From contig CP154954.1 of NCBI GenBank assembly GCA_039621445.1, forward strand, positions 15,642,140 through 15,706,139: a stretch of 64,000 nt of DNA, written 5' to 3'. A program made the translations under genes and the position numbers. Positions 8,273-63,662 of this stretch are shown here, piece by piece. The notes below the pieces were generated by a model. That model ran no database searches and was not told the origin of the DNA. It saw only the letters and a program-made list of their open reading frames with translations. The first letter of the stretch is position 1, and each line of letters begins with the position of its first letter. Source of the stretch: Euglena gracilis (lineage: Eukaryota).

Positions 8273-8303
<31 letters not shown>

Positions 8304-11300
8304 AGCACCTGTATTCCAGCACGCTTTCCAGCCAGCCGGTTGACCCCCCGGAGCCTTTCAAAAACCCGTGCTTAGCTGGCGCACAAATACTTCCTGTTGT
8401 ATGTCTGACCGGGTGTTTTATTAAAGAACACACACTTTTTTTTTATCTCGATGCCACACATGTGTAAACTCTTTTAACTTTCCGCGCCGTTTTTGCGGGC
8501 CTGAATGGTGAGACAACCACCCTGGGAGCCAGCCCAGTGGGGGTTGCTTGCCAGAGACCGACTGGTGCTCTTTTTCCGCCAGCCGCATGGCTACATGATA
8601 GCGCCCGGCGATGGTTTGCCACCGTTGATTTGCATCCACCCAGTCAACAGTTTGAAGATGGCCACCCAATTGCCCACCAACAGTTCACGGTGACAAAAAC
8701 AAAGGGGAATCCATGAAATATTAACCACTGATAACCGGGGGGGGGGTGCCAAATCTTCAAGAACTGTCGCTAACCACTGGGAGGTTTCCGTTCAATTCTG
8801 GGTGGTCCTCCTGGTAGTGTGTGGGGTTCAGCGGTGAGCTAAGCGTCAGATTAGGCGTTACTGCAAAACCACCAAGCCCTGACACCCACACCAGTCTGCC
8901 CCCCCCCCCTCGAATAGAAGCCCTCTCCCCAAATCTCCCAATAACAGGCCCTCTGGGCCCTCCCCCCCCAAAACCAAATGACAGCCCTCCCCCCCACTGG
9001 CCCAGCACTTTCGACCAAACACTACCCAAAATTGAGAGGAAATCTGCAAAATAGGTACATTCCAGAAAAAAATTGATATCTGTCATCCTTGGACCATCCG
9101 CCATCCACCCATAGCATCAAAAGTCACGTTTTCGACCTTTTTTTTTTTTTACTTTCAGACGCCGTTCGATCCCCGGACCACCCTCAGCTGCCTTTTGGCC
9201 GAAGTCAAACAAAGATACCCAAATAGAAGCCGTCCCCCATTGTGACCGAATATTAGCCCCAGGGGATTCTAATGGGGGGCCGTTCATACTGCCGCCATGT
9301 GGGGAGGTGTGTGCAGCAACAAACAGTACCCGACCCCCCCCCTTGTCCACTGACCACCCCTGAGTACCGACCACCCCCTTGTCGGGAGTTGCAGGGGGTG
9401 CATACGACCCCCCCCCCTGGTTGAAGGTTGTGGGTAACCTGGGAAAAACAGGTTTTTTTTTGGCACCCGCACACAAACACACGAACACACACATATGCAG
9501 AACACAGCGTTAGCATATTCCTAAACTTGCTGTTAAATGAATGCGACAGATACCCCTTCAACAGAGTGCCGGCATTCAATGCTGCGGGGGCTGTACCCGT
9601 AGCAACAGCTTGGGTCGGGGGTATGGTACAGACGGGGGTGGGGCTGGCACAAATGACTGAGAACTGAGGAATGGCCCAAGTCGCCCAACCCCTCACCCGA
9701 CCCCCCACCCCCCACATCAGGGGTTGCAAGTCAGATGATGCTTATGAGCTCCTGGTCGGGGGTTGTTGGAAATCGGTCGGTGGGCAAGGGGGGGGGGGTG
9801 TACAAAGCCAAAATGTTTTGGGCGCAGTGGGTTGGGGTGGTTGACCTTCCGAAGGCCATTGCTGAAGTGGGGTGGAGCAACTTCTGCAGAATTTTTTGTT
9901 TGATTGTTTCCATGTGCCAAGAAAGAGAAGGGCGATATCACCACAACAGGTTTCCTTTGGTAGGCAGATGTTTGCAATTGCAGTAGCAGTTGCAGTTTCT
10001 ATTGGCTGGAAAGGTGTCCAGCGTTGCGGCCTCTTTTGTCTCATTTGGCCGGGCGGGGTTTGACCCCCTGAGACACCGCCGCTCCCAGCCTCCCACGGGA
10101 AGTATTTCAGCCATAGCGACGTGGACGCGCGCTACATCAACCCGCTGCTGCACCCCCCGAACATCTCCGCCTACAGCCTGTGGACTTGCCTGCAAAGCAA
10201 GGCTTCACTTAAAACCTGTGTGACCGCGGCCCCAGGGGGGGAGGTCGGTTTTCGAGGGTGGGTGGGTGGGTTGGGGCCTTGGGACCCCCCCCCAGGGGTG
10301 GGATACACCTGGGTCAGGTTATTCCCCTGCTGAAGGCTGGACCGGATATTTTTTTTTTCAGCGGTTTCAATTTTGGCTGGATTTTGGGTGGGTGGTTGGT
10401 TGACCCCCGGCGGCGGGGGAGTCGTGGGTGGGTTCTCAAAAAAATGGGTGGGCGGGTTTGGGCCCGGGGAAAAGCCCCCCCCCCCCTCTGGGGTCACTGA
10501 GTGATTCCATGCTGCAGAGCAATGACGCCCTCATCGCCCTAGCCTGCCAGCAGCTGTATGGCAAGTACCAGGCAGGGGAAGGGCTCGCATCCTTATTTCA
10601 AAAGCACCCATGCGCAGGGTCCATCCACCCCTGCAACAAAAGGAACAACTTCACCACACATGGCGTGCTAAGAATCCAGCCACACACTTTCACCGAATCT
10701 TCAACAAGAACTTCTTTTACCCGTCAAGAAGGGGTGAGGTGGCTGAGGTGGGCATCTGGCTGGGAAGAGTTTGCAGCTGGACAATGGCTCAGCCTTGGGC
10801 TCAGATCCAGCATATCTGGTCTCCACTCAGGGATTTTGTTTAGTCTTGGACCCGGGGGGGGGGGGTAGGGTGGGTGGGTCCGGCCGAGATTTTTGGCATA
10901 TTCCGCGAGTTTTCGACCATTTTTGAGGAAAATTGAGTGGGTCCCCCGGGATCCCCGCCCGGTCTGAAGAAATCCCCTGTCTCCACTGTGTTGATTGAAC
11001 CGCCTTTGGGTCTTGGGTTAAAAGCCCTGCGAAACGAAAAACCATTTACTTTCCTAACAAATATACCGCCCACCCTCGGGAAACTATCATGTTGAGAAAT
11101 TATCAAGGTCTGCGGTACCGGCTGACAGTGGCCTGGAGGTTGGGGGGTGCTTGAATGGAAAGAAAGGCACTTCCTCTGCTGCCAATCATGGACAGCCATC
11201 CCCGAGATGAACCAGGAGATGGTGCTGGCGGGCCAGCGGTACTGGGTGGCCACCGGCTACAGCTCCGGTGATCGGGCCGGTGATGGCTGGATGCCTGGCT

Positions 11301-14300
11301 GGACGGCCTAGCGGAGCCGGCGGTGGCGTGGCAGAGAGGGGTCGCAACGGAAGTGCTGCCCTCCAGGGCAGCCAGCTCACCGTCGTATGGACGTGTGTAC
11401 GTGCAACAAATGTCCAAAAAAACGGACGATCGTTGCTGGCTGGGCCGACTCAGTCTGTTTCTTTCTGCAAAGAATTATAATGAAGAATATCGGGCTTCAA
11501 CTGAGAGCCAAACATCTCATTATCCAAAATTTCTGATGCCTCCAAAGTCCTGTATTTCAATGCCCCCCCCCCCCAATAAGGCCCGGGGCTCATTTTTGCA
11601 TCCGTTGCTGGAAACCTCCAGGGGGGTATTGTTATTTTTCGGGCCCGAAAAACATCCTTTTTTGGTTCAAATATGCACCAAATTTCACCTGCGGCGCTTC
11701 GCACCATGTACGCAGTGGCAGAAATTGAGATTTCACGTGGTTTTCTGCTCTCAAAATCACAATTTTCATCATTTTTGTGCCTATACTCTGGGATTTTGGT
11801 ATTTTTTTTTTCAGGGACGTTTTCTCCGTCTCCAGCTCTTTGCTTTTAACGTTGTGAAGGGTCTTATTTTTGGGTTTTTGCCAATCGACCCAGGGAAGAT
11901 TTTTTTGGGAGCGGGGGGTTTATTGGAACGTGGTCTTATTTTTGGAGGGGTTTTCATACCCATCTCCCGGATGAAATTGTCATGCCTCGGAAACCGTTGG
12001 AAATGGTCGACCAGTCATTTTCAGAATTTATCAGGGTCAGCATTCGTCGACCTGTCAGGAGACAGTTGTACCATATAGGTATGTTTGCACACATACATAT
12101 AATATCAAGTGTATGTATGTCTATGAATATGTAGACAGCAATTGGGCAAAACGAACCGGACACTCTTCCTCAAAAAATACCCACAAAATCTCAAGGGGGC
12201 AATCTCTCGTTTACTGTCCAACCCACTCAAAACTCCAGCAAAGCGGAAATTGGTTGCCTGGGAGCCATCCCCAAGAGAGGGGTGGAGGGGTGGCTTCTGG
12301 CGGTTCAATTTCTTGACTCGTCGCCGGCGAAAGTTGGACCCCCACCAAAAAAGACCCACTGATTGAATCCCGGCTGAATCTGCAAGTATGTATTTTCTGC
12401 CTTGTGCTCTCGATCTAAATTTCATTTTGCATGATTGCTGCCAAGTAAAACCCCCCAATTAGAAGCCCCCTGGGGCTACTATTTGGTCACTCTGCGGAAA
12501 ACCTGGGGGGAGGGCTTCTGACTGGGTACCCTTTGGCTAAAGGAAAAACATTTGGCCGGTGGCCGATCCGGGGATCGAATGGGGTCCAAATTTAATAATT
12601 TGCAAGCCGTATTTTTTTTTGAGTTTTGTGTGGATAGGCCATGTTTCAAGGACACCAGATATCAGTTTTGTTCCCGATGTCGACCTGTTTTTGTGGAGAT
12701 TTTTCGAGGTTTTCACTGTTTTTCGGAAATTTTTTCTGTCAACTTTGTCGGCCGGCTTCGTCGGGGAGGGGGGGGGGCTGTTGTTTGGGTTTTTGGTGGG
12801 AAACCCGGGGGGGGGGGGGTTTTATTTGGGGGGGTTGTTTTTTTTTGGGGGGGGGCTTTTAATTGGGGGGTTTTATGCCATCAGATGGTTTCCATTTCCG
12901 GCCCCGGCCCGGCCGCACCCTGCAGTGCACGGTGCTGATGCTGAAGTGCCGGGCGTCGGTGATGGGCAGCATCGACGCCAGCAACGCCTACGTGGACCAG
13001 TCTGTGTCGGACAAGAAGGGGGTCACACCCGGGGTGTTTGGACACTGGAGTTTGGGTCCCGGGCCCAAGCAGAATGATGACATATTTTGAGTAACCTTCC
13101 TTGGCGCTTTTTGTTGAAGTGCAGTGTTTTTGACGTTGACACACCTCATGTGCCAACAGCACATTGCGTTGCAGTTTCTTGGACAGCGGGGAAGCTAGTT
13201 GGTCAGAGGTGGTTAGGTATCTGAACTGCTGTGTTTCAACATTTGGTTTGTGATTGTTCACAGGGGTTTCAGCACGTGTTGCATTTCGTGTTTCCATCTC
13301 TATTTCTGGGCAGCATTTCTCCGGGGGCACCTCGTTCAATTTCCCCCCAGAAGAGCTATTGACTGTGCGGGGCACAGGGCAGGGTTTGATATAAGGAGGG
13401 CGTACATGGTTTAGGTAGGGGGGTCCCCCAACCCCCCCCCCCTGGCCCGCAGGGGGGGTCCGGACCACCCCCCCCCACCTGCCAGGGGGGGTCCGGACCG
13501 ACCCTCGGGGGGGTTCCCGGGACCCCCCAAAAAGGGTCAATTTTTTCCTCCGGCGCTTCGCGCCGAATATTTTTTTTGCATTTTTGGCACATTTTTTGCC
13601 CAAAAAGTGCCCAAAATGGCACTTTTGGTCGTTTTGGGGGTCAAAAATTTTCGGCCACCCTGACCGCGCACCTGTTTAGGTGGGGGGGGTGTCCCCCCCC
13701 ACCTCCCCCCCCTCCTGGCCCGCAGAGGCCCCCCCACCTGTCCTTATATCGAACCCTGCCACAGGGGTGTGGGTGAACGTGGTCGACCCTCCGCCGCCGT
13801 TCGTCATCCTCGGAGTGGTGAGCGCCGTTGCCGTCCTGCTTCCCCTCAGCGTAGGGTTGTGGCTGGCGACGCGGCTCTATATGCTCGCACGGGGAAGCAG
13901 GGCCTGTCCCCACACCGGTTCATGAAGTGGTCCCCCCCTCAGACTGTCATTCCTGAGATGCCAGATGTCACTACAGGTAGCCTCCAGGCAGCCCCAGGGC
14001 GGTCCTCAAGGGACAACCCTTAAGATTATTATTTATTTGTTTTTATCTGGACTTTTATCATGTTCAGGACGACCCCTTAAGGAGCACCCTTCGGCCAAAG
14101 GGCTGGCCAAGGGCTGGACCGAGGTCTGAAAGAGGTCAAAACTTAAAAAGCCGATAATCACAGTTTTTCATCTTTTGGCTGGTTTGGCCCAAGGATGCCA
14201 GAAACCTTTTTTTTTCCCCCTGGCGTCAACCTGTATTCGCCAAGAAACTTCACAGAAAGCCTTTTTGCCCATTTTCCCGGTGGCTTTTCAGTTGAGTGCC

Positions 14301-14749
14301 CTGGGACTGCAGATTGTCTATTTCCATTCTTTGTTTCGTTCGCTTAATGACCGCCCTGGGCAGGCCAGAAGCGTCTGCCTTTTGCTTCTGTTTCCACGGT
14401 TTCATTTGTGGTGCTGATCAGGCCAACGGGACGGGCCCTGCCCCCGATGGACCGCATCGCGCAGCTGCAGTTCGCGACCACCGCCCCGCCGCCCACCGTG
14501 TTCCGGGAGCTGCACCGCTTCCAGGCCTCCTTCGTCCAGATGGAGCGCGGCCTGCAGGCGTTCGGGAAGTTCGTGCCGCACGGCGTGGTGAAGGTGCTGG
14601 GCAGCCCGGGATTACAATTTGGGAGATGTGCCACGTCTGTTGTTGAATTTCTGTTTTCTTCTTTTCTTCTGCCACCCCCCCCCGGTTGAAGTGCAGTGTC
14701 GCAGATAGACCTGTTGCAGCAAAGCGTGCGCGCTGTGGGTCTCTGAACT

Positions 14750-14791
<42 letters not shown>

Positions 14792-17700
14792 CGTCCGTGC
14801 GTGCGTGCGCACGTGCGTGCGTGCGCGCGTGCGTGCGTGCGTGCGTGCGTGCGTGTGTGTGTGTGTCTGTCGGTGGGGGGGGTGGGGGGGTGGGTGTAGT
14901 GTGTGCCAGAACCAAGGACCCTCTCAGTTTCCCGGGCGGGAATCCAACAGGTTCTCAGGCACATGACAATTTCCTCGGGGGGGTTGTCCTGTGTTGTTGG
15001 TGTGCAACGTGCTCTGCTACACACAGACACACAGACACACAAGACACATGGCACATAACATATGTGCACACAGGCGTACACACACCTTGCCTGGTGTCAT
15101 TAGAAGAACTACCTTACTTTTCATCTTGTTTGGTTGAAAGTTAATTGGCCAGTAATGGGCGTTAATTTGGGTACTTTTGTGGTCCGGCCCACTGGCAGTT
15201 GAAACCAGACTGGGCTGCAAACCCAGCTGGACTGCACTTTTTTATCCAAAGTTTTGAGGTACACCCCCAAAACCTCAAAAATGCCATTTTCGGGGGTTTG
15301 ACCCCGTTTTCCCCCAATGTTTTCGGTGCTTTGCACAGAAAATGTTTCGGTTCATCCCGGTTTTGCCAGGCTTACAATAATTATTTTCCCTTCTTGACCC
15401 CCCTTGAGGGGGGGGCTGGCTGGGAGCTGCTGGCCGGATCTGGGAGATGCTGGCTGGCTGAACCCAAGGGTTAGGGTCCTTCCAGCTTGAGAAATAATGA
15501 TTTCAGCCCACTGGATGGAAGAACTTGCTGGCTGGATAGAAGATGCTGGCTGGACCCAGCCAAAGTCGCCAAGTGTAAAACAGGAAAATTGCCTCTCTTT
15601 GCCGGGGTGTCTCTTGGCCCACACTCGCCAAACTGGTCTTACAGCGGGTTAGCCTCCCACACCGCCAATTTGGCCGAAGCCAATATTCTGGGGAGGTTTG
15701 CATGCCACCCCCCCCCTCCCCCTGGCTTGTTGCCCAAGCCAGAACTGCCATAGTCAGTGGGGTGACTCTTTGCTCTTTGGCCTCATACTGCCACAGGTCT
15801 TTGGAGCTGATTAACCCAAAGTTCCCCCCCCACCTGGCTTCTGGTGCCAACATGCCGAGCAGTATGTGGTTCTTCTCACCCAGTGAACTCAAGGCAAATG
15901 CCATTGAAGGCTCTCCGAACATGTGTAACCTTGCCAGGATTTTCAGGAAGCCCTTCGGTATTGAGGTGGGTGATTGGGGAGGGGGCCGACGATCCCCCCG
16001 GGGGATAAGGTGAAGGAAGGGGGTCTGGACCAGATGTCGGGAGGGGGGTCCGGACCACACCCCCCTCCTCAGCAGATGATTGATGGTTTGGTGTTTTCCA
16101 CATAAATGTTTCAAATTTCATAAATTTCAAAAAAATGAGCATTTTTGGATTCATTTTCAAAGAAAAAATCAGGGGGTTTTTGAACAATCTTGGCCAATTT
16201 CCTGCCCTTTGCCCGTCCATGAAACCGAAGGTTTTCCAGGCCCATGTGAGTTTCGAGGTAGGAGGGGAGGGGTCCAACCCCCCCCCCCCTCAAGGCTTCC
16301 CATCTTTTCCAATCAGGCTGATTTCTAAGGCAAGGCCAACCCTCCCCCCCCCTCCCCCCGGAGCTATCCTGGTCAGGCACTCCAAAGCACCCAGGTTCCA
16401 CCTCTGGGGGGGGGTACATGGCTAAAATTGCTTTGGGCACCAGTTTTTGGATCGCTGTTCTGTTCTGGTTCGCTAATTCTGGCATAATGGTTCGAAGTAC
16501 CCGGGGGGAGGGGTTCAGCTCGACTGCAGCTGTTCCAAATTTGGCCAGTGGAAACCCCAGTGTCCCTGGATCCAAGGTATGGAAATTTTTTCCAGTGACC
16601 GGCATGAAGCGCTATAAAATTTATTGACCCCCAAAACCTGCCAAAATGACCATGTTTGGAAATTTTCCTATTTTTTGAACAAAATCGGGCAACAAAAACA
16701 CGGCAAAAACATCTTTTTTTTTACCTTGGCACACAGCGCCAGAAGAATTTTTTTCTGGTTGGGGGGTGACGAAGAGGGGGTCTGGCTACCCCCCTCCCCG
16801 GGAAACTATCATGCCCGAGAACCTGTCAGGGTCCCTCCCGGGAAACTGCGAGGGTCCTCGTTACCAGCCAACTGTTGGCAGGGTCCCCGGTACCGGCCAA
16901 CCTGTCAGGGTCATTTTTTTTCAATGATTTTCCCCTGAAATGCCCTACTGGGGGAACTGTCAGGGTCCCGCCCAGGAAACTGTCAGGGTCCTTGGTACCG
17001 GCCAACCTGTCATGACAGGAAGTTGTCAGGTGACAGTTTCCCAGGGGGGGGATAGGTAGTGGCTTTTTCTGGTGTCTGCTGTAAAAGCTAGCTGGTCTAC
17101 CTCCTCGGGGTCCTTATGCAACAGCCTTCTGGGCACTCAGGCAAGGCACTCCTTGTGCCGGAAGCCTAGAAAAGCCCATTTTTGGGCATTTTGACCAGGC
17201 AGGCACGGCCCCAGGGGGGGGGGGTATTGGCTGCCTGCCCAGGCAGCCCGAGGCACCCTGGGGAGGCCGCCCCCCCCCCCCCCCCCGGGGTTGTCAAGTT
17301 CAGCCTGCCCTCAATAAGGACCATCACTGGACCTAGTAAGGAGAGTGCTGGAATTGTATCGAGTCCAAGTCGTCGTCCAGGGGCTGGCTTCAATCGCTGG
17401 CCAAATGAAGGCAAACGATGAGATGCATCCCACGCAGGCCAGCCACCAAACAGCAGGAGTGGAGCACAGGGTTTCCCACTGTGGGCTGTTCCACCGACGT
17501 ACCACACACTCATTGTATACCCTATCAATCTAATTACTGCTGCATTTCAGACTTCACTATGTAAGCAAATGTGCGCACGGGCAAGTGGGTGGGGGGTACC
17601 CATCTTTTCCGGTCCTTAGACGGGGGAGAGTATGCACATAATTTCGTCGCATATGTATCATGAATCCCACAACGTGTAGTTCGCTCCGCAAAGACCGCAA

Positions 17701-20700
17701 AGAAAGTGTTCACCCAAGTCAGTTAAGAAACCTGCACTCCAACAAACGTGCTCACCCAGTGTCCAGCATCCTCCTCAACTGCGACTAATATGGTGGTGCG
17801 GGAGCAATAATCTAAATTATCCAGGAGGGAAAATTGCTTTAACTGGCTGGTGTTACTCACCTAAAAAAACAGGTGTATTTTCTTTTGTAATATGAGTGTA
17901 CTACTGAGAATTATTTTTTTTTTCATAATGTATATAATTTGGATGACGTCAGTTATTTGAAACAACTCTTCACATGTAATTTATGAATTTTTTTGGGTGT
18001 GCAATTTTGTGTTTCACCGTCCGCAAACAGTTTCAAGGATTTAACTATTGATATGTAACACTCAAAACCGCGCAGAAGGAGGCAGCCTGCCCCCAGGATG
18101 CTGACAATCATGTTTGCGGACATCGAGGGCTTCTCCACCATTTGTGAGAACGAGTTCCCCGCCGTTCTGGTCTCCGTGTGCACGGAGTACTTCGAGGCCA
18201 TGTGCAGTGCCCTGGGTCCCCAATGCCGCCACGGAGCTGCTCGAATTTTTTTTAAATGGCAATATGCTGGGTTGAAAAAAATACCCCCCATTTCCAGGGG
18301 TTGGTCAAAGATTATGAAACCACTAAAAAACAATCGCTCACCTCCAGAAAAACCACCCAGTCAGCACCGTGGGTGAGTGGGTTTTCGAAAAAAAAATGGT
18401 TTTGTGGGTTCCCCCAAGGTGCCCCCCCCCCCCTGGGTCACTAAGTGAATCTATGGTCACAACCCCCTGGGCCACATTTCTCCTCTACTTTCGGTGCCAA
18501 CTCATTTTGCGCCTCCTTCTGGGAGTTTGGTAACAAATTGTGTGATGCCTTTTTTTCCGCTCACCTTTCGGAGGCATTCCTTTCCTCTCCGGGCTGGACT
18601 CAGCTGTCCAACATCGTAGGACGCAACGGCACCATTGACAAGTTCATTGGCGACTGCATCGGCAGCGTTGCAGTGGGTGGTTTTGAAGTTGCGTCTGTTC
18701 AGGGGATCCGTCCATTAAATGTTATGCATTTCATGTGTTCAGTGATCCCTCAATTTCCATAATTATCGACACTCATTTTATTCGTTTGTCAACAACACTC
18801 GTATGCTTCTTTGCACCGGACCATCCATTCACGATCCTGTCAGCCTGTGCGACCCCCGGCCCTGTGTACGTGTCACCGCCACGTTCACAGACACAAATGG
18901 CCAGAGGCCAAAGTCACGCCAGGCCGGAAGAAGGGATGAATGGCACGAAGCAAACAGCCACAGTGCAGTGGCGTTCACTTCCACAGCTACCTACCCCAGG
19001 GAGATTGTCACGCCAAGAACCTGTCAGGGTCCCTGGTCCATGACTGGAATTTGGAGGAAGTTGAGGACCAAGGGTCCTTGGTCCCGGCAAACTTCAAGAC
19101 CCAACCCCGGACATTTTCCCGGTCCTGTCAGGTGACAGTTTCCCGAGGGGCATGCCAGACTCCACTGCCGTGCTGTGCCATGGCGATGTGGAACGCACCG
19201 GACCGGCTCCCCAACCACGAGAGGGACGCCGTGGCCGCGTCGTTGGCGATGCAGGACGCCCAGGGGCTGTGCCGCGAAGGCAACTCGCGTGCGGGGTGTG
19301 GCGGACGGCAGGTGTGCAGTGTGGTGCGGGGTGCACGGTGGTGCGGGGTCTACCCCAGTCACATCGTGGCCCCCCGGTGTGGTCCAGACAGGGAATTTTT
19401 TACGTTTGGACCCCCGGGGGGGAGGGGGGGGGTAGGGTGGGTGGGTCTGGCCGAGCCCCCCCCCCGGGGAGGGGGGTGGGATATACTTTTCGGCGCCGCA
19501 GGCGCCGAAAAAATTCTATTTTAGCACTTTTCGCGATTTTCGGACATTTTTTTTGTGGGTCCCCCGGGACCCCCTCCCCCCCCCCGGTCTTAAAAAAACC
19601 CCTGGGCCCAGAAGCTGGCCCAGAAACCCATCTCCGGAACAAACGTCCCCCCCACCCGCCGACCCATTTCTGTTTGCCCGGTTTGCCGGCCCCTGCCGCT
19701 TGCGTCATGGACCTGCACCGGTCGTGGAAGGACCGCGGGCTGCCGGTGCTGAAGTTCCGCGCGGGCATCCACACCGGGGAGTGCCTCGTGGGCAACTTCG
19801 GCCAGGGCCGGTCGCGTGCCTGTCTTCGGTGCCCTCTGTGCCCATTCCCGGTTTGTCAAATCACCCCCATTTCCATCGATGGTTGTATCGTGGAATGGCA
19901 TCACCCTTGCTACCCCATGAGCGAGCCTCAGGTGTTCGTGTTCCTCTAATTATGCTCCCCCCGGACCTCCCTGGAGTCAGCCTCCCCCAGGATTGCAACC
20001 TGACAACAGCCTGATTGGCCGGAACGTTGAGACCCTGACACCGAGGACCCGCTGTCGGGGAGGAGTGAAATGAGCGTTCCTCAAACGTGAAAGTTTTGCA
20101 GAAACTTTCAAGCAGATGCCAGAATCAACCCGTGGATGCAATCACGGGATTGTCCCGAGCTGACAGGATACCACTCTTGCTGCCAATCTCGTTTACATTG
20201 GGACTGTTTCCCGCTCGTCTGGCCAACAGCTCCGGCCCTGGGGCGGGCTGCAGCTACCGCGTCAGCTACACCTGCCTGGGCGACGGGGTGGCCCAGCCCC
20301 CTCCCGATTGACCCACTGCTCACCTGCTGTGTGGAGTTGACCTCTGCAACCAAAATAATAGTGGCAAATGGCCAAATTTGAATACATCTGGCAATCAAGA
20401 ATTGTCTCCCCCTCCATAAACCATGTAATTGAGTCTGGGTCAGAATGGAAAAAAAACACCCAAAATGACTATTTGTTGGAGATTTTTGGAGATTTTGTTT
20501 GTGGCTGTACCCACCTTTTGCCCGACTAAGTACCGACCACCCCCCCCAGTCGGGGATTGCAGGTCAGGGGGGTGCGTGACCCCCCTGGTCGAGGGTTGTA
20601 GGAATCGGTGGGTACAGGGAGGGGACTCTTTGGAAACAGTGCAAGTATTTGGGCTTCAGAGTTCTCAATATGTGTTCCACCTGGATGTAACATAAACTGC

Positions 20701-26020: not shown

Positions 26021-26052
<32 letters not shown>

Positions 26053-27839: not shown

Positions 27840-28364
27840 GGGAACCGGAAAATTTGGCCCAGGCTTCGCCGGACTGCTGTCTGATTGGGAAGGGACGCCT
27901 CTCCCGTGGAAGTGGAGTAGGGGGGTGGCGAATCCCACCCAGTTTGGACCCCTGGTCGGTTGAATACCTTGGCCTGTTTGGGGGTGTCACAGTGTCACAA
28001 ACAGGGGTGTCCCAGAAAGCCAGGATTCAGTCGGTCGGGATTGGGAAACAAATAGCAGTTCAGGGCTGGGGCTCTTGGTGATAATCCGCAATTGTCGAGG
28101 GTAGTCCGCAAGGGACGGGATTTTTTTTAAATGGACCCCCCCCCCCCGGGCCAAAGGGTCGACCAAGTGCTGGTCTGGGGCTTGAACGGGGTTGAAAGTG
28201 TTCAAATTACTTTTTTTGATGTTTTGGCTGGTTTGGCAAAGGTCTAAGGATGCCAGAAATCAATTCCCCCCATGATTTCGACCTGTTTTTGCCGAAAAGT
28301 CTTTTTTTTGCCATTTTTTTTGGCCATTTTTCCTTTGTGGATTTTCAGTTGAATGTGCTGGGGC

Positions 28365-28661
28365 CAGGCCGTATGTTAGTCGGGTGCCGACCCCACCCCG
28401 GAGGGGGGGGGGGTGCCTGCCTGGGCAAGTACTCCAAGGCACAAAAATCCGACCCCCCGGTTGGGGGAAGGGCACTCGGTCAAAAGTGCCTAGCAGGCAC
28501 TCCTGCGCCGAAGGCGCGGAAGGCTCAAACAAAGCCTATTTTCAAGGAAAATGGCCTATTTTCTGAGGAAAGTTCCTGGGCACACGCTGAAATCCGACCC
28601 CCCCCGGGGTAGGCACTCAAGTCCGGACCCCCCTCCCCCGGGGGGTGGTAAAAACAGCCTG
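28365..28661. mobile_element. CAGGC-ended MITE with perfect 8-bp TSD
   Basis: caggccgt...acagcctg, with TSD gctggggc on both sides. An empty-site paralog lies near 32535-32580. Confidence 0.85.
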
Positions 28662-29530
28662 GCTGGGGCAGCGTTTTTCTTCTTTCTGAAGGACCGCCCT
28701 GCGATTACCCCCCCCCCCCCCGGGAAACTGTCATGCCCGAGAGCCTGTCAGGGACCCGCCCGGGAAACTGTCAGGGTCCCTGTTACCGGCCAACCTGTCA
28801 TGATAGGAAGTTGTCAGGGTCCCCAGTACTGGCCAACCTGTCAGGTGACAGTTTCCCGGGGGGGGGGTTGTAATTTCCAACCCCGACCTTGGGGCACAAG
28901 GCAGATTCACCTCGCATTTTTGATTCCTTTATGGTTTTGTGGTGGATGAACTGTTCAGTTTTTGGGTAGCCAACTCTGGGGTTGGTAAGGGGTTGCTGGT
29001 GTTGTTGGGTGGGGATGCCCGGTGTGACCGTGTGCGTGACAGTGAGTGTAAACAAGTGTGTAAGAGTGTCTGCAACAGCGGAAAACACGTAAATAGATCT
29101 GATGGCGGAAAAGCCCGACCAAAAAAATAGATCAGGGGGTCTCACCATACGCCACCTTCCCACTAACTACCTCTTTACGAAGTCTTTCATCATCCCGCAT
29201 TGGAAAGTGTCCACAGCTTGCAGGAGCTCGACACAAAGCACTCCATTCTTCTTTCTTGTCTGATTGACCTCCAAGCTGGTTTCGGTGCACATTTCTGAAG
29301 AGGAAGGTTCCTTGCCCATGCATTTTCAGGATTGCGTGACAAAGTACGAGTTCTTTGCTTTCTACTTTGACCCAGAATTCACAGCTGTCAAATAAGATGC
29401 TAAAGGGCAATTCTGCGGTGCGGTCGTTGCAGCCCCGATCGACCCGACCCAACCCTCCCTCCACAGCCGGCCCCCCCCAGGGAAGGGGGGTTGCGTGCTG
29501 TGGGCCCACGAGGTCGTGACACCGGAGAAC

Positions 29531-29741
29531 CAGGCTTTTTTTTTTTTAGTTGGGTGCCTACTCCACGGGGGGTGGGTGGACAGGCACCCCTGTCCGGGAA
29601 ACGATCCCGTTTTCTTTACCCTGTTGGCAAGGACCCAGCCGACCCTGGGTACCCCGGGCTGCCCCCCCCCCCCCCCCGGGGGTGTGCCTGCTATGGGCAG
29701 GCACCCCATAGCACCCCCCCGGTCGGTAAAAAAAAAGCCTG
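29531..29741. mobile_element. CAGGC-ended MITE with 8-bp TSD
   Basis: caggcttttttt ... aaaaaaagcctg, with TSD cggagaac / cggggaac. Confidence 0.8.
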
Positions 29742-31820: not shown

Positions 31821-31846
31821 ACACACACACACACACATACGCATGT

Positions 31847-31897
<51 letters not shown>

Positions 31898-31915
31898 CGC
31901 ACACACGCACACACA
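31821..31915. repeat. (CA)n microsatellite
   Basis: Direct inspection. Confidence 0.95.
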
Positions 31916-34900
31916 AACAGGACTATTTGCACGTGTGCATGAACATGCCTGCCCACCTACCCACCCACCCACACTCACGTACACACATACACACAGACAC
32001 ACATGTACACACGCACCACTCACTCCACACTCCACACTCCACACTCACTCACTACTGTGCACGCACGCGTTTTACCTTTGCATCCTCGGTTGACCGCCGT
32101 GGTCACCGACAATTTCTTCGAAAGGGTGCCTTGTTTGTTCAGAGTGTTCTGCAATTTAGCAATTTTTCCAATTTTGAATGCTTCCAGGCGTGTGGTGACA
32201 TTTTGGAAACGGGATATTGACAGGGTAGAAATTTGTTGCGGAGACAAACCTTTGTTCTGTTTCATTGAATTTGTTTTCTTTCATGACTCCTTTCTCTTCC
32301 TGTTCCGTTTTTCCAACTCTGGTGTCCCAACAGTTATGCAACAACTTCCTGAGTGCCAGGGCGGTCCAAAAGGGATGGGAAGTCTTCTTTTCCCTTTAGC
32401 ACCACCCCTACAGGACCGCCATTTGGCCCAAGGGATGGTCCAAGGATGCCAGAAATAGCTTTTTTCTCAGAGTCGACCCATTTTCGCCAAAATATGGCCA
32501 TTTTTTCTTCCATTCTTTCTTATGAATTTTTCATTGAATGTGCTGGGACGGGAATTTTTTTTCCGTTAAGGACTGCCCTGCTGAGTGCTGATGAAAATGC
32601 TTTTGGTTTTGCACTTGAACATGTATTGAGAATTTGTGCTAATGTCCGACCCCCGAGAACCTGTCAGGTGCCCGCTCTGGAAACTGTCAGGGTTCTTCCT
32701 GCTGACCAACCCGACAAAGCCCGTGGCTGGGGGGTGGGTACTTCCTGGGTGGTATTGCGAACCCTGGTTTGCACTTCTCGGGTGGTAGGGCCTTTTCGGT
32801 CAGAAGTTTGATGCCAATGCGACAAACGTTGTATGAATGCCAGCACCAAGGCCCCTGGCAGGTTTTGGGTCATGACAGTTTCTTGTTGGGGAGGTGTGCT
32901 TCTTGAGTGACACTGAGAAAGAAAAACGAGGAAACAAAAAAAAAAGACTTATGTGGTTCCAGTCAAATATACAATTCTGTCTGACGGCGTGGATCTTTTG
33001 GGCGAAATCGAACAATTTGTTTCACATCGAGCTTTAGGCTGTTGTTCTTGATTGTTTGTTCTTGTTTGTGGGTACAACAAAAACGTTGTAACCCAGCCTA
33101 CTAGGGGAACTGTATGATCGCCACTGTCCTGGTTCTTCCCCACAGGAGGCATTTTTTCTCATGCATTTTTATGACTCGTGGCTCAAAATATTCGATGTTG
33201 CAAATTGTTAGTTTTTGCTTCTTAATGCCTGGACACATTTCTAAAATGAAGTATTTTTTTTTAACCTTCTGACTGCGAAGGGCCAATATTTTCCCCTGTC
33301 CTTTCCCCCCCCCCCCCGGACTGCACAACGACCCGGGCAACCCCCGCCCACGGACTGCGCAAATTATTGGACCATGGTTTCAGACTTTCAGGGATGCGAC
33401 ACTTATTTGGGCACCGCCCGAAAGCGGTTCAGTAGCTCTTTGGGGGGTTTGCACTTTTTTAGGCTTCACTTTTGGCCCCTCAGGGGTGTGACGTTGGGAG
33501 GGGGGTTTCCCCAAATTTCGGCAAAACAGGCATCCCCCCAGTTCTGACCCATATTTTCCGGTGCTGAGGCAAGAGGAGGAGGAGGTTCAAGCCTACAAGC
33601 CTACCTCCCCCCCCCCCTTGTCTAAGCCCCCCCCCCCCCCCGATTCTTACCCATCTTTTTAAAGGTCATCGTCACGGGGATGATTATTTTGTGTGCATTT
33701 TTAAGGGAAATTTCTCAAAAATTTCGAAATTTTTGCAACTTCTGACACCTGATTTGGTGAGGTATTGTTGATTTCTGCATCCAAATGTGTGTGAGTTCAA
33801 CAGTGGACCTCCAAAATAAGGGGAGTTTTTCCTTTTCGGCGCGAAGCGCCGGATTTTTTTTGCAGTCAAAGCTTTCCCCCTTGTCTAAGCACCACCCCCC
33901 TGGTTCTTACCCATATTTTGGCAAAATAAGCACCCCCCCCCCCAGTTCTGACCCATATTTTCCGGTGCTCAGACAAGAGGAGGAGGAGGAGGTTCAAGCC
34001 TACGTTTGCACATGGGTGAGTTTGTCTTCTGTCAAAGCCACACGGCCCCCTCGTACAGGGACTGGCCCCAGTTTGGCCAGCCCCACCGTCCTGCTCCCGG
34101 GGTATTTGTGTGTGTTTGTCTGACCGAGTGCTTTCCCAGCACCCAAGCACCCAGCCCCCTTCTCGGTCAGGAGTCACCCTGTTGACAAGGAAGGTGCTCC
34201 AAGGCACCTGCTGGGTCTGGCATCAGGAGCGTTTGCATTGTTTTTTCGTCAGAAAGGTCCAACAGGATCCAGCGTTTTGCACCCCCCTCCCGGTTGCAGT
34301 TCGACGTGAGTTCTGCCCGACAATTTGTCAAAAATCTTTGAAAATGCACACTGGGCAAAGTCAGGGACCAACAAATTATGCACGTTGGCGATCCCAGTGT
34401 CTCTTTGGTCCCTCTCTGTCGGGGGCAGGGGTATTACTCACTTGGCCTGGAGTATTGGTGACTTTGCTGGGTTGCCCTGATGCAGTTTGGCCAAAATGGC
34501 AAGAAATGGAAAAGAATGGGGTTTTAAAATGTTGCAAAACAGGCGAGTTCCTCCTGCACGCTGATTTGCGAAATCAGGGGAACCTTCGACGCTGGACGTT
34601 GGCCGATATGTCAAAATGTGGAGTACGTGGATCCAGACACGCGCCAGGCTGGCTGGCTGGACCCCCTCCACCAGAGGTTGGTTCTCTCCTGCCCAAGAAA
34701 TCTCTTGTGGAACATATCACCTTCAACCTCAGCAAACATTTCATGTACGCAATGAGAGACGAGGCTGCCAGTGTTCACAATGTGCAGCACCAGCAAAGGC
34801 CAAAAGTGCCGACTGCAGCCCTGACCTCCTCGCAATTCCTGTCGAGCGGTGAACACGTCCCACTCCTCAATTTCCATTGTATACTTCCGTTGTGCTCCAT

Positions 34901-37002
34901 TGTGGGAGGGGAAATCTGCTGCAAGTTTTACGTCTGCATTTATTACCGTTTAGCATTTTTAACGGTTTAATTTTTTTTGTATTTTCTGATGTTTGGTCGT
35001 ATCCATGGTCCATATCCACGATCAGAACTCCTTTCAGTTACCCCCCTATGTCCAACGACAACCCCCCCCCCCCGATCAGAGGACACCTTTTCGGAGGTTT
35101 TTTTGTAGGTGCGTGAAAACCGGAGGTTTGCCAGCCCTGAAAGGCTTTTCTTCCGCCCTTGTCCTCTACCCAGCAGCCCATCGTCCATTAAAATGTTCCC
35201 TCTGGGGAGTTTTGTGCATTACGAGCGCTCCACCGGGGAGATAGTGCTTGCGGTTGTTGAAGGGGCTTCACCACACTCCCAACATTACGCCATGACATTT
35301 TCGGGTGTTTGCTAGGTTGTAGATGGAGTGAAGATGGTTGATGGAATGCAGGGATTGTCGACTGGGTATCTTTGTTTTTTTTTGTGAAATCCCGCGGCGT
35401 GAAGGTACGTTTTGGGTGCTATTTGATGAAATATTTGTTGAGAGGGCTGGAAACGGAAAGGAAAAGTTTGACTGTTTGGGGGGTTTTTTGGCAGACCCCT
35501 TTTCCAACGTCCCCCCCCCCCCCCCCCGGTCAGAGGACACCTTTTTGGTCACTACCCTATGTCCAACGCCCGCCCCCCCCCCCCCGGTCAGAGGACAGAG
35601 GTTACCGGTCGTTGGACATAGGGGAGAGGGGAGGGTAATGTCGAGGGACAGGGTGTCGTGGTCAGGCAGAGGAGGGGAAGGCATTTTTCGAATTAGTGCC
35701 ATGTTACACCCCCCAGCAGGGATTTTTTTAAGTTTGGACCCCCGGGGGGGGAGGGGGGGGTAGGGTGGGTGGGTCCGCCGGACCCCCTCCCCCCCGGGGG
35801 GGTCCCCCCCGGAGGGGGGTGGGATATAGTTTTCGGCGCCGCAGGCGCCGAAAAAATCTATTTTTAGCACTTTTTGCGATTTTTCGGCCATTTTTTGTGG
35901 GTCCCCCGGACCCCCCCCCAGGGGGGCCCCCCCAGGGGGTGGGTGGGTGGGGGGACCCCCCCCCCCCCCCCGTCTTAAAAAAACCCCTGACCCCTATGCA
36001 GAAAAGGCACTGAGAGCCAGAAAAAGGTCATTTTCTAGGGAACAGAAGAGCTAGGACCCATACAGATCTCCCAGAGAACAAGGCACCTGCCCCCCCTTCG
36101 GGATTGTGAAAAAGGAGCCTGTCCATCACCACCTTTTTGTGCGTAGTTTGTTGCACCCCTGTCATTTCTATTGCCACGTGGGGGTGGGAGGGTGGGAGGT
36201 GCAAGGGTATAAATCCACCAACCACACCAACCACCAGGGCGGGCCATAAGGGACGGGATTTTTTTTTAGTTAAGGACCGCCCCTTAAGGACCGCCCCCCC
36301 CCCCCAATACACAGAAACCCGAAAAATTGGACCCGAAAAATTTTTTTTTCGCTTTCGGCCATCAACTTTTTTTTTTACCCATTTTGGGACCCATATGAGA
36401 GGTCTCCCCAAAAACCCCTCAAAACCCCATTTTTTCACACCTTCCAAAAATTGAATATTTTCTCAAAAATTTGGGTTTGAGAGTTTTTTGAAGCAAAAAA
36501 AGCCATTGAAAATCCAAAAAATTTCCAAGAGTTTGAATGTTCCAAAATTTGGTCCTTTTTTTTTGACCTGCATTTTTTTGAACGCCCTCCTAAAAACTAA
36601 CAATTTTCAACTCTAAAATTTTGAGTTTTTTTTGGGAAAAATGTGGTTTTCCATCAAAAAAATTGTGTATTTTGGGTTCATTTTTCAAAATAATTTTCAA
36701 AATTTTCCCTGGCCAAAATCCCCTTTTCCTTATTTTTCGGTTGAAGTGTATGGGGACAGGATTTTTTTTTTGCTTAGGGACCGCCCTGGCAACCACCCAA
36801 GGTGTGTGTATGTCCTCACAGCGCTGGAATCACACCAGAGTTGCTCACCAGCTGGGGGAGCAACACAAGAGCACTGATGCAAGGGGTCCACTCACCACAC
36901 AAACTGGTCCAGAAGCGAAGTTACCGCGGCCATAAACAGACAAGAAGCCTCAGTGCAACTAAGGGGGAGGTGTGGATGGTCAAGCACAAGAATCAAGTAA
37001 AC

Positions 37003-37973
37003 CCCCCCAAATAACACCCCCCCAAATAACACCCCCCCAAACGACAGCCCCCCAAATAACACCCCCAAATAACACCCCCCAAATAACACCCCCCAAATAA
37101 CACCCCCCCCAATAAGAACCCCCCAAATAACACCCCCCCCCCCCAAATAACACCCCCCCAAATAACCCCCCCCCCTCGGGGGCCGATTTCGCGCGCCCAA
37201 ATAACCCCCCCCCCCAAATAATTCCCCCCCGGGTATTTATTTTTTCGCCCGAAGTTCCGGCCCGAGGGGGGGTATTATTTTGGGGGGGGGTATTATTTTC
37301 CCAAAATTTTCGAAATTTTTCGAAGTCCCGTAAAACCGAAAATGGCACCCAAAACCCCCTTTGGGGTCATTTTTTTTGCACTTTCTTGTGAAATTTACCA
37401 TTTTTTGGAGGTCAGATGAGCCAGAAAAATTGATTTTTTTTCGTAATTTGTTGTCAGAGATTGTGATTTTTACCCACATTTTCAGGTTAAAATCCGGGCC
37501 AGGCTTCTTTTTAAGACACCTGACCCCCCCCCCCCCCGGGAGTGGGTGGGTCCGGGCCGGACCCCCCGGGGGGGGGGGTCCCGCGCCGGAGGCGCCGGGT
37601 ATACCTTTTCGGCGCAAAGCGCTGAAAATTTTTGAAATTGCCTTTAGCGGGCCCGATTTTGGGGGGTCCCCCCCCCCGGGGGGGTCCCGCGCCACCCTGG
37701 GTGGGTGGGGGGGGACCCCCCCTCCCCCCCCCGGGGTCTTAAAAAGAAGCCTGAATGGGGCCTTCGGCCCGAGACCGAGGGGGGGGGTATTATTTCGGCG
37801 GCCGAAGTTAGACCCCAAGAGGGGGGGGGTATTATTTGGGGGGGTGTTTTTGGGGGGGTTTAACACCCCCTCCTGTTTTCCATGTAAAAATAACACCCCC
37901 CCAAATAACACCCCCCCCCGGGGTCCCATTCGGGTGCCCAAAAAACACACCGGGGGGTGTTATTTGGGGGGGT
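37003..37973. repeat. Element with arrays of aaataacaCn subterminal repeats and inverted Gn-tattatt copies; related to ~3125-3495
   Basis: About 12 tandem aaataac(a)ccccc units at 37008-37220, reverse-complement units toward the right end, and a body shared with 3125-3495. Confidence 0.7.
37500..37753. mobile_element. CAGGC-ended MITE nested in a larger repeat element
   Basis: TIR caggcttctttttaagac / gtcttaaaaagaagcctg (18 bp, perfect). The host element is seen uninterrupted at ~3370-3400. Confidence 0.8.
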
Positions 37974-45025: not shown

Positions 45026-46131
45026 GGCGCCCATCTCCTCCTGTGGGACACCCCGCCATGCGAGTATTATTATTATTTTACAATTTTTTATTACATTTTT
45101 ATTTGTATTGTTTTTATTTTTTTTGTATCCCCCGGACCACCAAGGGCATTCCATAGTGAGCATCTAACGTGTCAAATGGGAGTTTGTCGGATTTCGGTTG
45201 TGAAACTCAAGACTTTGTGTTTTGACTAACCCCCCCCCCCAAAATAAGACCCCCCCAAAAATAAGACCCCCCTGGGCTGATCAAGCAAAAATCCAAAAAT
45301 AAGACCCCCCATAAATAAGACCCCCCTGACGGCGCGAAGCGCCGGGGACGGTGAAAATTTTTCCCGAAAAGTTACAAAAAATCACAATTTCATACACAGA
45401 AATGATGAAATTTCAAAAAATTTCAGATTTTTGAAGTGCAAAAAAACATGGTAAATGTCAATTTACACCAATTTACACATGGCGCAAAGCGCCGAAGAAA
45501 AATTTTTGTGTTCTTGGGAACCTGAAAAATGGTGTTTTTTTTCGGGCCCAGGTCGATCAAGAACCCCCCCCCCCCCAAATAAGACCTCCCCTAGAGGCTT
45601 CCAGCAACGGACCCAAAAATAAGACCCGGGTCTTGTTTTTGAGGGGGGTTTATGAGAACTGAATCCCAATGGGATGCCATGCGTTGATTTGGTGGTTATC
45701 GACGTGGACATATTCAACGTTAGTGAAGAAGTGGTAAAGGTTAGGATTGATGGGCATAATTCCTGCCATCCTTTTGGGGGGTGCATTTCCAAGGCGTCAG
45801 AGGGACAGGAGAAGAAAAGGGGACCGGATGTCCTTTCTCTGGTGTCACCCGGGGTTTTCAAGAGTTCTTTGGGGGGGTATTGAAATGATCTCAGCGGCCT
45901 AACTCACATTTAAGGTTTTGATTTTTGCATTGCGCCTAAGCGCAATGTTGCAATATTTTTGCAACCTGGCGGTGAAACCCAACTTTTTGACCCTCTGCTC
46001 TGGTTTCCTTTGGAACCCTCCACGGTGGCATTTGCATCATTTGCCGATGTTGGGACCCAGGGAACAGGCCCAATTTTCGGCTTGTGCACCATTTAAAAAG
46101 GTTCAAAAACCTGGGTTTTAACTTCCAGGAC

Positions 46132-46301
46132 ACATACATACGTACATACATACATACATACATACATACATACATACATACATACATACATACATACATA
46201 CATACATACATACATACATACATACATACATACATACATACATACATACATACATACATACATACATACATACATACATACATACATACATACATACATA
46301 C
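46132..46301. repeat. (CATA)n microsatellite
   Basis: Direct inspection. Confidence 0.95.
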
Positions 46302-49300: not shown

Positions 49301-49615
49301 TCGTCAGGGCTGCTCCTATATTGCATCTGAGACCCATACTACTAGGAAATGCAGCCTTTTTGGGGTTATTTTGTCAAATTTGGACTAAGTTCATTCGCGT
49401 TGGATCAATCGGGCTATTTCTGACATATTCAAGACCAGTGGGCTGCTTTGGGCATTTTAGTCAAGTATTTATGGCCAATTTCATAGGCATCAAGTCAGCA
49501 TTTTTTCGCATAATTCCGCATTAATAAATGGAATATAACCACCGCATAGTTTGGAAAACATATTACTGCATTCTCCCCCGCCTTGTGATTGGTGTGTCTC
49601 CCCCTTTGCTTCCAG

Positions 49616-52600: not shown

Positions 52601-52616
52601 TTTATTATTAAGTGGC

Positions 52617-52708
<92 letters not shown>

Positions 52709-52719
52709 GTATTAGTATT

Positions 52720-52756
<37 letters not shown>

Positions 52757-52820
52757 TTATTATTATTATTATTATTATTATTTATTATTATTATTATTAT
52801 TATTATTCTTATTCTTATTC

Positions 52821-52868
<48 letters not shown>

Positions 52869-60118: not shown

Positions 60119-60199
<81 letters not shown>

Positions 60200-61929: not shown

Positions 61930-61961
<32 letters not shown>

Positions 61962-63624: not shown

Positions 63625-63662
<38 letters not shown>

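Follow-up and report, generated by a model that had tools for sequence, protein, structure and literature searches.

CAGG...CCTG MITE-like elements in and around a Euglena gracilis cyclase gene and their fit to the nonconventional intron code

The cyclase gene and its LSM14 neighbor

The window, which is the whole 64,000-nucleotide stretch of DNA that was analyzed, is nuclear DNA of Euglena gracilis. A class III adenylate/guanylate cyclase gene of at least 27 exons was placed on its forward strand (124–27839) by mapping EG_transcript_7248 and by using the paralogs P0058 and P0106. EG_transcript_7248 (P0057, 591 aa, PF00211) was located by exact k-mers, its 20 exon segments falling within 124–19802, with two residues differing. 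The 3′ half of the gene model rests on the paralogs, at 50–100% identity per exon, and not on its own transcript; it consists of exons 20246–20290, 21147–21187, 22073–22166, 22537–22614, 26346–26477, 27593–27683, and 27778–27836, followed by a TGA stop at 27837–27839. No identical transcript was found for this half, the best matches having 64% and 84% identity. Pfam missed the cyclase exons, which were located via third-position G+C content and protein search.

The nonconventional introns of euglenids are described in PMC12501133 by the code N3-CDG...CH'G-N5-6 followed by R, and PMC11170887 mentions E. gracilis introns with CCAGG at +3 to +7 and CCTG at −9 to −6. The strict form of this code, CDG at +4 and CH'G at −8 or −9 and then a purine, was found in 11 of the 17 solved cyclase introns, and the other six do not fit. 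No protein-preserving register gave GT/GC-AG borders for any of the 17, and every examined cyclase intron is nonconventional.

Further downstream lies the 5′ part of an LSM14 gene (40121–45028, forward strand), whose five exons and four conventional GT-AG introns were placed by mapping EG_transcript_4567 and by Pfam; residues 235–462 of this transcript were not found in the window. LSM14 was the sole credible Pfam match among 540 scanned ORFs, made up of the 90 that reach 140 aa or more across the window and, from the 631 in the 55–139 aa class, the 450 lying between positions 1 and 44185. A DENND11 match at 25796–26341 was rejected as low-complexity sequence scoring below the cut-off, and a DUF3792 match was rejected with a score under its own cut-off. 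Rfam at gathering thresholds gave 0 matches in the window.

MITE-like elements with CAGG and CCTG ends

The first-pass annotation had listed eight elements with CAG and CTG ends between 8-bp flanking repeats. All eight were recovered where it had placed them, starting with CAGG and ending with CCTG, and its remark that each bears the CAG...CTG signature in either orientation is borne out, because the ends are symmetrical and present the signature on both strands. The flanks are identical at 8/8 positions for 10828–10979 and 28365–28661, at 7/8 for 13380–13758, 19389–19604, 21409–21667, and 29531–29741, and at merely 5/8 for 35717–35989 and 37500–37753. Elements beyond this list were detected with flanks of 7/8 (13995–14358; 20615–20825, which has a weak inverted repeat; 27687–27772; 36235–36788) and of 8/8 (32357–32580; 54790–55167; 22618–22971). 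The CAGG start and CCTG end are present in six of the seven additional elements, the exception being 22618–22971, whose 3′ end is ATG and not CTG. The 5′ part of LSM14 (40121–45028) holds none of these elements.

The window contains 379 CAGG and 389 CCTG sites, so that CAGG and CCTG, with short matches in their flanks, might co-occur by chance in DNA rich in G+C and in repeats; two noted elements have flanks of just 5/8, and 20615–20825 and the scan match 35919–36089 sit in stretches dominated by G or C. A search for CAGG...CCTG pairs 80–700 bp apart with flanks of at least 7/8, however, yielded 13 in the window against a mean of 0.56 and a maximum of 3 in 100 first-order Markov shuffles. A looser scan, which asked for CAG...CTG with 6/8 or better in the flanks and 10/16 or better in the terminal inverted repeats, yielded 12 against a mean of 3.5 and a maximum of 7 in 30 shuffles. 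Copies are also alike over their full length, as for 19389 and 35717, which are 84% identical over approximately 200 nt. Chance is hence refuted as the origin of the whole set, for which we regard it as practically negligible, though single weak members (20615, 35919) may be due to it; 35919–36089, in a poly-C context, probably is.

The set exhibits the anatomy of MITEs. The duplication is 8 bp throughout, inverted repeats match at 10–15 of 16 positions, and related copies of 86–554 bp without a Pfam domain occupy unrelated sites. The noted elements are real MITE-like insertions, as had been proposed, with their 8-bp flank repeats, terminal inverted repeats, and families. Family A comprises 10828, 19389, and 35717, with 37500 as a more distant relative; family B comprises 21409, 28365, and 29531; family C comprises 13995, 32357, and 36235, together with a degenerate fourth copy at 28096–28701.

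At least seven elements are located outside any shown gene. The family B MITE 28365–28661 (297 bp, duplication GCTGGGGC) lies 526 nt past the cyclase stop. Between the cyclase and LSM14 genes were also found 29531–29741 (family B, 211 bp), 32357–32580 (family C, 224 bp, duplication CTGAGTGC), 35717–35989 (family A, 273 bp), 36235–36788 (family C, 554 bp), and 37500–37753 (254 bp), which has an 18-nt perfect inverted repeat. The element 28365–28661 is a MITE within a MITE, as it sits inside the old degenerate family C copy 28096–28701, of which the 5′ end was seen. When 28365–28661 and one copy of its duplication were removed in silico, the elements at 32357 (nt 81–224) and 36235 (nt 500–554) aligned across the junction. 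A contiguous family C end was thereby rebuilt, which indicates an insertion with 8-bp duplication; this empty site is a single case, compared within the family and not between alleles.

These copies bear on the idea that the flanking repeats were left by double-strand-break repair at intron gain, the elements themselves not being mobile. Such repair was proposed in PMC4770533 for a newly gained gapC intron with eight-nucleotide direct repeats. It is very improbable for the present set, in which the repeats do not depart from 8 bp across at least 13 elements, families have common inverted repeats and interiors, copies also occur outside genes (28–38 kb), and one copy lies within another with a reconstructable empty site.

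Elements inside introns and across coding sequence

Nesting in transcribed introns, which had been suggested earlier, stood for the elements at 10828, 13380, 19389, and 21409, which lie in the expressed cyclase gene. It did not stand for those at 28365, 29531, 35717, and 37500, which fall between the cyclase stop and the LSM14 start (40121), where no gene or transcript was shown and the scanned ORFs gave 0 Pfam matches. With 13995 and 20615 added, six elements are nested in six cyclase introns, all read on the forward strand. The host introns are themselves nonconventional, so that an intron signature within an intron is structurally true.

Intron 10570–11183 (AGG-CAGGGG...CTG-CTGCC followed by A, with CAG at +4, CTG at −8, and a purine next) forms 10 outer end-to-end pairs in its minimum-free-energy fold and holds the family A MITE 10828–10979 (152 bp, duplication TCTCCACT; predicted excision unit 10825–10984). 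Intron 13027–13798, a CGG...CCG variant, holds the 379-bp MITE 13380–13758 with the inverted repeat CAGGGTT(T/C)GATATAAGGA at 15/16 (predicted excision unit 13377–13763). This element stops 40 nt short of the 3′ end of its host, the nearest of the nested elements, and forms 18 inner end-to-end pairs in the host-intron fold. The clearest nonconventional-type element within a nonconventional intron is the family C MITE 13995–14358 (364 bp, inverted repeat CAGGGCGGTC at 14/16; predicted excision unit 13992–14363). Its host, intron 13895–14445, reads AAG-CAGGGCC...GGCCCTG-CCCCC followed by G, and in one fold its own ends form 14 pairs and those of the element form 10. Intron 19258–19700 (GCC-CAGGGGCTG...GGCCCCTG-CCGCT), in which the next base is T and the purine preference does not hold, contains the 216-bp family A MITE 19389–19604 (predicted excision unit 19386–19609). 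The 211-bp candidate 20615–20825, less certain than the others given its inverted repeat of 10/16 and G-rich context, lies in intron 20291–21146 (GCC-CAGCCCCC...GGGCGCTG-CCTCCC followed by A, a 6-nt spacer). Lastly, intron 21188–22072 (GGC-CAGGGTGC...GCCCTG-CCGAG followed by G, the register read from the sequence by eye) holds the 259-bp family B MITE 21409–21667, whose end pairing is CAGGC/GCCTG only (predicted excision unit 21406–21672). The flanks match at 7–8 of 8 positions for the nested elements, whereas those of the host introns match at 0–5 of 8.

An intron-type element within another intron is a feature shared with Euglena plastid twintrons (group II/III) and fungal stwintrons. In a twintron proper, a functional region of the outer intron is disrupted by the inner intron, which has to be removed beforehand. 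The earlier term "twintron-like" is not supported in this strict sense, as no inner element interrupts the outer terminal stem, and therefore no removal order is imposed. The inner elements lie 40–258 nt away from the outer intron ends, and in the fold of intron 13895–14445 the inner element does not keep the outer ends from pairing.

Two elements split the cyclase coding sequence itself. The 86-bp MITE-like element 27687–27772 (flanks TGCCCAGC/CGCCCAGC, 7/8) has 13 end pairs in the fold and shares 78% identity with 55359–55421 over its first 63 nt. The paralog proteins continue as …AALAAQ/LEHAEA… across it, up to the stop at 27837, and a cut at −3/+5 yields GCT GCC CAG CTG GAG. Judged from this reading frame, the element is itself the predicted nonconventional intron 27684–27777 (AGC-CAGGGCT...AGCCCTG-CGCCC followed by A). 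The 354-bp MITE 22618–22971 follows exon 22537–22614, with the duplication TTCCTGGA (8/8) and the termini CAGACAATTGCTTA... and ...TAAGCAATTGTATG. Removal of it and one duplication keeps the frame (…LPG/TVGVDVQREPVKPA…) with a weak likeness to the paralogs (…LPGAVSMDVEEMEHPREIYKPVK…), while read-through into it meets a TAA stop after 4 codons. This element is less surely an intron than 27687–27772. It may be a recent disruptive insertion instead, since it ends with ATG and single CAG or CTG changes are described in the PNAS paper (PMC12501133) as abolishing the splicing of a test intron.

Terminal pairing varied among the elements. When the first 20 and last 20 nt of each element were scored as a hairpin against 1500 random CAGG...CCTG pairs, 6 of 15 elements had energies that ranked among the best 2.5%, and 21409 and 28365 ranked near the median. 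The base after the sense-strand 5-nt spacer is a purine in 8/8 gene-resident elements (6 nested and 2 coding) versus 3/7 others, which is a small, post-hoc count.

Transposons within introns are common in eukaryotes, which favors the view that the nested copies are passengers, inert cargo that departs from the transcript solely along with its host intron and whose CAG...CTG ends go unused inside introns. The mRNA would be identical with or without inner excision, so that nothing requires it; the outer terminal stems are untouched by the inner elements, and the ends of four of the six (10828, 19389, 20615, and 21409) are unpaired in whole-intron folds. Against this, the inner ends of 13380 and 13995 pair in strong terminal stems retained within their hosts, and the purine follows the spacer in all six nested copies. 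Fully synthetic 50-bp introns carrying only the features of the code are also described as being spliced (PMC12501133), which suggests that context matters little. According to PMC11170887, moreover, there are 59 cases of two introns that overlap but differ at their ends, and nested signals would produce such pairs. We give inert cargo slightly under an even chance. We infer that the RNA excision machinery that removes the outer introns would also recognize the nested copies; independent excision of these copies from a fraction of the molecules is quite possible though short of probable. We judge that a correct mRNA does not depend on inner excision, as the nested copy leaves together with the outer intron.

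Insertion, excision, and comparison with known systems

The best explanation, which we consider on balance probable, is that the elements are non-autonomous MITEs acting as ready-made introns when transcribed. It draws on the transposon anatomy, gene model, nesting, and fit to the published code shown above. MITEs with terminal inverted repeats beginning with CAGG would insert and make an 8-bp target-site duplication; their ends coincide with the published code: 3 spacer bases, CAG...CTG, 5–6 spacer bases, and a purine. An RNA cut at −3/+5 would take out the element with one duplication copy and restore the pre-insertion sequence, because the spacers of 3 and 5 bases sum to the 8-bp duplication. 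Any transcribed copy would then be a ready-made intron. The window would hold several stages of this process, namely intergenic copies, a copy in a copy, two coding-splitting copies whose duplications match at 7/8 and 8/8, numerous older nonconventional introns with decayed flanks, and six young copies nested in six introns.

A MITE origin of euglenid nonconventional introns has been on record as a hypothesis since 2013, based only on the inverted repeats at their ends, and a PNAS 2025 paper and a Mobile DNA 2024 review call their origin and removal mechanism still unknown. Neither free CAGG...CCTG MITE families in Euglena nor nuclear nonconventional twintrons were found described in the literature searched. 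Here, free copies, a copy in a copy, coding-splitting copies, decayed introns, and young nested copies stand side by side within 40 kb; the coding-splitting copies retain near-perfect 8-bp duplications, and the published 3- and 5-base spacers sum to the duplication length seen in the window. The elements share CAGG/CCTG ends, 3-nt and 5–6-nt spacers and, for some of them, pairing between the termini, with euglenid nonconventional introns as these are described in PMC12501133, PMC11170887, and PMC3935182. They differ in that most noted elements do not lie between exons, six being in introns and at least seven outside shown genes, and in keeping near-intact 8-bp repeats (7–8/8), in contrast to the established introns of this gene (0–5/8).

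Among DNA transposons, the hAT superfamily has an 8-bp duplication and termini of CAG/TAG type. The element termini and duplication match this consensus. With hAT MITEs, such as Ds-type elements of Ac/Ds, they share the 8-bp duplication, CAG(G) inverted repeats, the lack of coding capacity, and multi-copy families. A difference from hAT is that neither a hAT nor any other autonomous transposase was found among the 540 scanned ORFs of the window, in which no element showed a Pfam domain. Ds was reportedly found by Giroux in 1994 to be spliced out of transcripts; RNA excision in Euglena would differ in relying on a code that is non-spliceosomal and anchored in the ends of the element, and not on cryptic GT-AG sites. 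Regarding hAT transposons in Euglena, the sole Euglena paper among the matches listed concerns Merlin elements. These Merlin transposons of E. gracilis have 8-bp target duplications, and all of their inverted repeats begin with 5′-GG (PMC8101967). A Merlin identity was rejected, as the present elements begin with CAGG; fitting 5′-GG would take a two-base boundary shift at the cost of the flanking repeat. Introners, the transposon-derived introns of other protists (PMC11282704), share the creation of introns by insertion, with the duplication contributing to splice junctions. They use the spliceosome and build GT/AG sites, whereas 0 of 17 introns here are GT/GC-AG and the inverted repeat itself would be the signal.

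A stronger form of the favored explanation holds that nonconventional splicing in Euglena is an RNA-level reversal of hAT-like insertion, in which the machinery would measure 3 and 5 bases outward from the paired element ends and so take the element with its 8-bp duplication, and nothing else, out of any transcript. Nested copies would give rise to separate circles, to nested or recursive excision, and to overlapping introns. Circular RNA is reportedly the subject of Guminska (2021, J Mol Biol). Such a reversal is conceivable but unlikely. The purine after the spacer would under it be a sign that excisability is selected for, including within introns. If inner copies are indeed excised alone, the machinery would act on any paired CAG...CTG hairpin, exon-flanked or not, and the reported overlapping introns could be explained.

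CAGG...CCTG elements and their flanks

All eight MITE-like elements listed by the first-pass annotation were found where it had placed them, each with a 5' CAGG, a 3' CCTG and 8-bp flanking repeats of varying match. The flanks agreed at 8/8 positions for 10828-10979 and 28365-28661, at 7/8 for 13380-13758, 19389-19604, 21409-21667 and 29531-29741, and at only 5/8 for 35717-35989 and 37500-37753. The window was scanned for CAGG...CCTG pairs with a spacing of 80-700 bp and flanks matching at no fewer than 7/8 positions. This gave 13 elements against a mean of 0.56 and a maximum of 3 in 100 Markov shuffles, which excludes a chance origin of the set. Elements added by the scan were 13995-14358, 20615-20825 (a weak member), 27687-27772, 32357-32580 (flanks 8/8), 36235-36788 and 54790-55167 (flanks 8/8), while a poly-C match at 35919-36089 is probably due to chance. 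The element at 22618-22971 has a perfect TTCCTGGA duplication, yet its 3' end is ATG instead of CTG.

The set comprises MITEs and nonconventional introns, both known kinds, and the 8-bp duplications and CAG-type termini resemble those of hAT elements. Merlin elements with 8-bp duplications are known from E. gracilis and have ends beginning GG (PMC8101967), on which ground membership in this group was rejected. Earlier publications already cover nonconventional introns, the code and circular products of these introns, and the hypothesis that they come from MITEs. The papers searched held no description of free families of CAGG...CCTG elements with 8-bp duplications in Euglena, of such elements nested in nonconventional introns, or of nuclear twintrons in euglenids; the nested elements fall outside the strict definition of a twintron.

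Cyclase introns and the predicted geometry of excision

Coding exons in the window carry ~88% G+C at third positions, and scanning for this signal led to a cyclase-like motif in an ORF at 18.1 kb. With this ORF as query, a protein search retrieved EG_transcript_7248 at 100% identity, a class III adenylate cyclase of 591 aa (PF00211), which was placed by exact k-mer mapping on 20 exon segments of the + strand (124-19802) with two residue differences. Paralogues carry the gene on to a stop codon at 27837-27839; a search for a transcript identical to the 3' half found none. The transcript mapping and the paralogue extension together identify 124-27839 as one expressed gene. A Pfam DENND11 match at 25796-26341 was discarded as spurious, being low-complexity sequence whose translation reads as DRQT repeats.

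For 17 introns, all junction placements reproducing the protein were enumerated, and GT/GC-AG was found in 0/17 in every register. Eleven of the 17 follow the strict nonconventional code, with CDG after three bases, its complement CH'G at a distance of five or six bases from the 3' end, and a purine next; in the remaining six the ends still pair, with variant motifs. Eight introns were placed by hand (18660-19178, 19258-19700, 19800-20245, 20291-21146, 21188-22072, 22167-22536, 22615-22976 and 27684-27777), of which none is GT-AG as placed and five fit the full code. Code motifs are present in part in 19258-19700, where the next base is T, and in 22615-22976, which ends ATG; 18660-19178 has CAG at +4 and a 3' spacer of only 3 nt. 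GT-AG was absent from all 25 cyclase introns examined, 17 in every register and 8 only as placed.

According to a knock-in study (PNAS 2025, PMC12501133), the nonconventional code is N3-CDG...CH'G-N5-6|R, and synthetic 50-bp sequences with this code get spliced; a survey (BMC Genomics 2024, PMC11170887) places, in E. gracilis, CCAGG at +3..+7 and CCTG at -9..-6. The spacers of three and five nucleotides sum to eight, the duplication length of the elements, so that an RNA-level cut at -3/+5 would remove an element together with one duplication copy and bring back the target sequence. This equality was not found stated in the accessible portions of the literature on these introns. For a newly gained intron, Milanowski 2016 (PMC4770533) reported direct repeats of eight nucleotides, and a 2024 review depicts duplication-like repeats at junctions.

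Element 27687-27772 (86 bp, flanks 7/8) directly interrupts the cyclase coding sequence at a position where paralogue proteins are continuous (…AALAAQ/LEHAEA…). Cutting 3 bases before CAG and 5 after CTG yields GCT GCC CAG CTG GAG in frame, followed by A. The continuous paralogues and the in-frame cut indicate a nonconventional intron with its target duplication still visible. Its first 63 nt are found again at 55359-55421, a partial copy of the element forming intron 27684-27777, directly 3' of which lie interstitial TTAGGG-like telomeric repeats (55425-55470). Element 22618-22971 (flanks 8/8) also directly interrupts the coding sequence. The frame is preserved when the element and one copy of its duplication are taken out, and the resulting peptide is weakly like the paralogues; reading through the element meets a stop after four codons. 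It may be a recent disruptive insertion instead of an intron, because its 3' end is ATG. The elements support the long-standing MITE-origin hypothesis unusually directly, and the locus offers a direct way to test both how such introns arose and whether the excision machinery acts independently of context.

Insertion history and possible excision of nested copies

The nesting in transcribed introns proposed by the first-pass annotation was borne out for 10828 (host intron 10570-11183), 13380 (13027-13798), 19389 (19258-19700) and 21409 (21188-22072); 13995 (13895-14445) and 20615 (20291-21146) are also nested. It was not supported for 28365, 29531, 35717 and 37500, which lie, with 32357 and 36235, within the 12 kb separating the cyclase stop from the LSM14 start, an interval in which no gene was shown.

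Sequence comparison grouped 10828, 19389 and 35717 into family A (84% identity between the latter two), with 37500 more distant, and 21409, 28365 and 29531 into family B; family C (13995, 32357 and 36235) is marked by the inverted repeat CAGGGCGGTCCnnAAG. Computational deletion of 28365-28661 and one GCTGGGGC copy let two members of family C align across the junction, which shows that 28365 entered an older family C copy at ~28096-28701 and duplicated 8 bp of it. Flanks match at 7-8 of 8 positions in nested elements and at 0-5 of 8 in established introns, so the nested copies are younger than their hosts. When an element lands in an exon, 3 nt from the left copy of the duplication and 5 nt from the right one would turn intronic and could drift, which fits the decayed flanks of established introns.

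At the junctions of intron 10190-10511 lies a near-perfect direct repeat of 11 nt, with 12 equivalent placements, and the 5' end of the intron, CAAGGCTTCACTTAAG, is similar to the inverted repeat (CAGGCTTCTTTTTAAG) of 37500-37753; the intron may have arisen from an older member of the family. The interiors of elements with different termini (19389-19604, 35717-35989, 37500-37753, 13380-13758, 22618-22971 and 41990-42030) hold one kind of palindrome, TTTTCGGCGCC-GCAG-GCGCCGAAAA, set between poly-G and poly-C runs; it may be a shared internal module or a hairpin bound by protein.

Excision of nested copies independently of the host intron is a candidate process. It is favored by the code, which alone seems sufficient, and by the 59 overlapping intron pairs recorded in the survey (PMC11170887). 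A single fold of intron 13895-14445 has both its outer and its inner ends paired, and the terminal stem of 13380 (18 pairs) is kept in the fold inside its host intron. On the sense strand, a purine follows the 5-nt spacer in 6/6 nested copies; with 22618-22971 and 27687-27772 included, this becomes 8/8 gene-resident copies versus 3/7 elsewhere, a small post-hoc count. Against inner excision, the ends of 10828, 19389, 20615 and 21409 did not pair with each other in whole-intron folds, and 21409 and 28365 had terminal stems no better than random CAGG...CCTG pairs. Nor is inner excision required, because removal of the outer intron yields identical mRNA; no outer stem is broken, since the inner copies are 40-258 nt away from the outer ends. 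Nonconventional introns are removed rapidly, but after spliceosomal ones (PMC6221363), so that inner and outer hairpins would coexist, and their fate would depend on kinetics.

The LSM14 gene and a second MITE type

The LSM14 Sm domain at ~40145-40276 was the single credible match in a Pfam scan of 540 ORFs, and a protein search with this exon matched EG_transcript_4567 of Euglena gracilis at 100% identity, which fixes the species. The gene has five exons and four conventional GT-AG introns in the window, and contains none of the listed CAGG...CCTG elements. Intron types are segregated by gene here, since none of the 25 examined in the cyclase and all of the first four in LSM14 are GT-AG. No match to residues 235-462 of EG_transcript_4567 was found beyond exon 5 (45029-64000); this copy may be truncated, have a different 3' end or contain a very long intron. 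A second MITE type with ~27-bp inverted repeats (CCCCCCCCCTATGTCCAA(C/T)GACC...) was observed at 40314-40635 and 41872-42221, in the first two GT-AG introns of LSM14. Its flanks are TAA/TAA and TTA/TAA, resembling the 3-bp TWA duplication of Tourist/PIF-like elements, and its interior has a stretch in common with that of 13380-13758.
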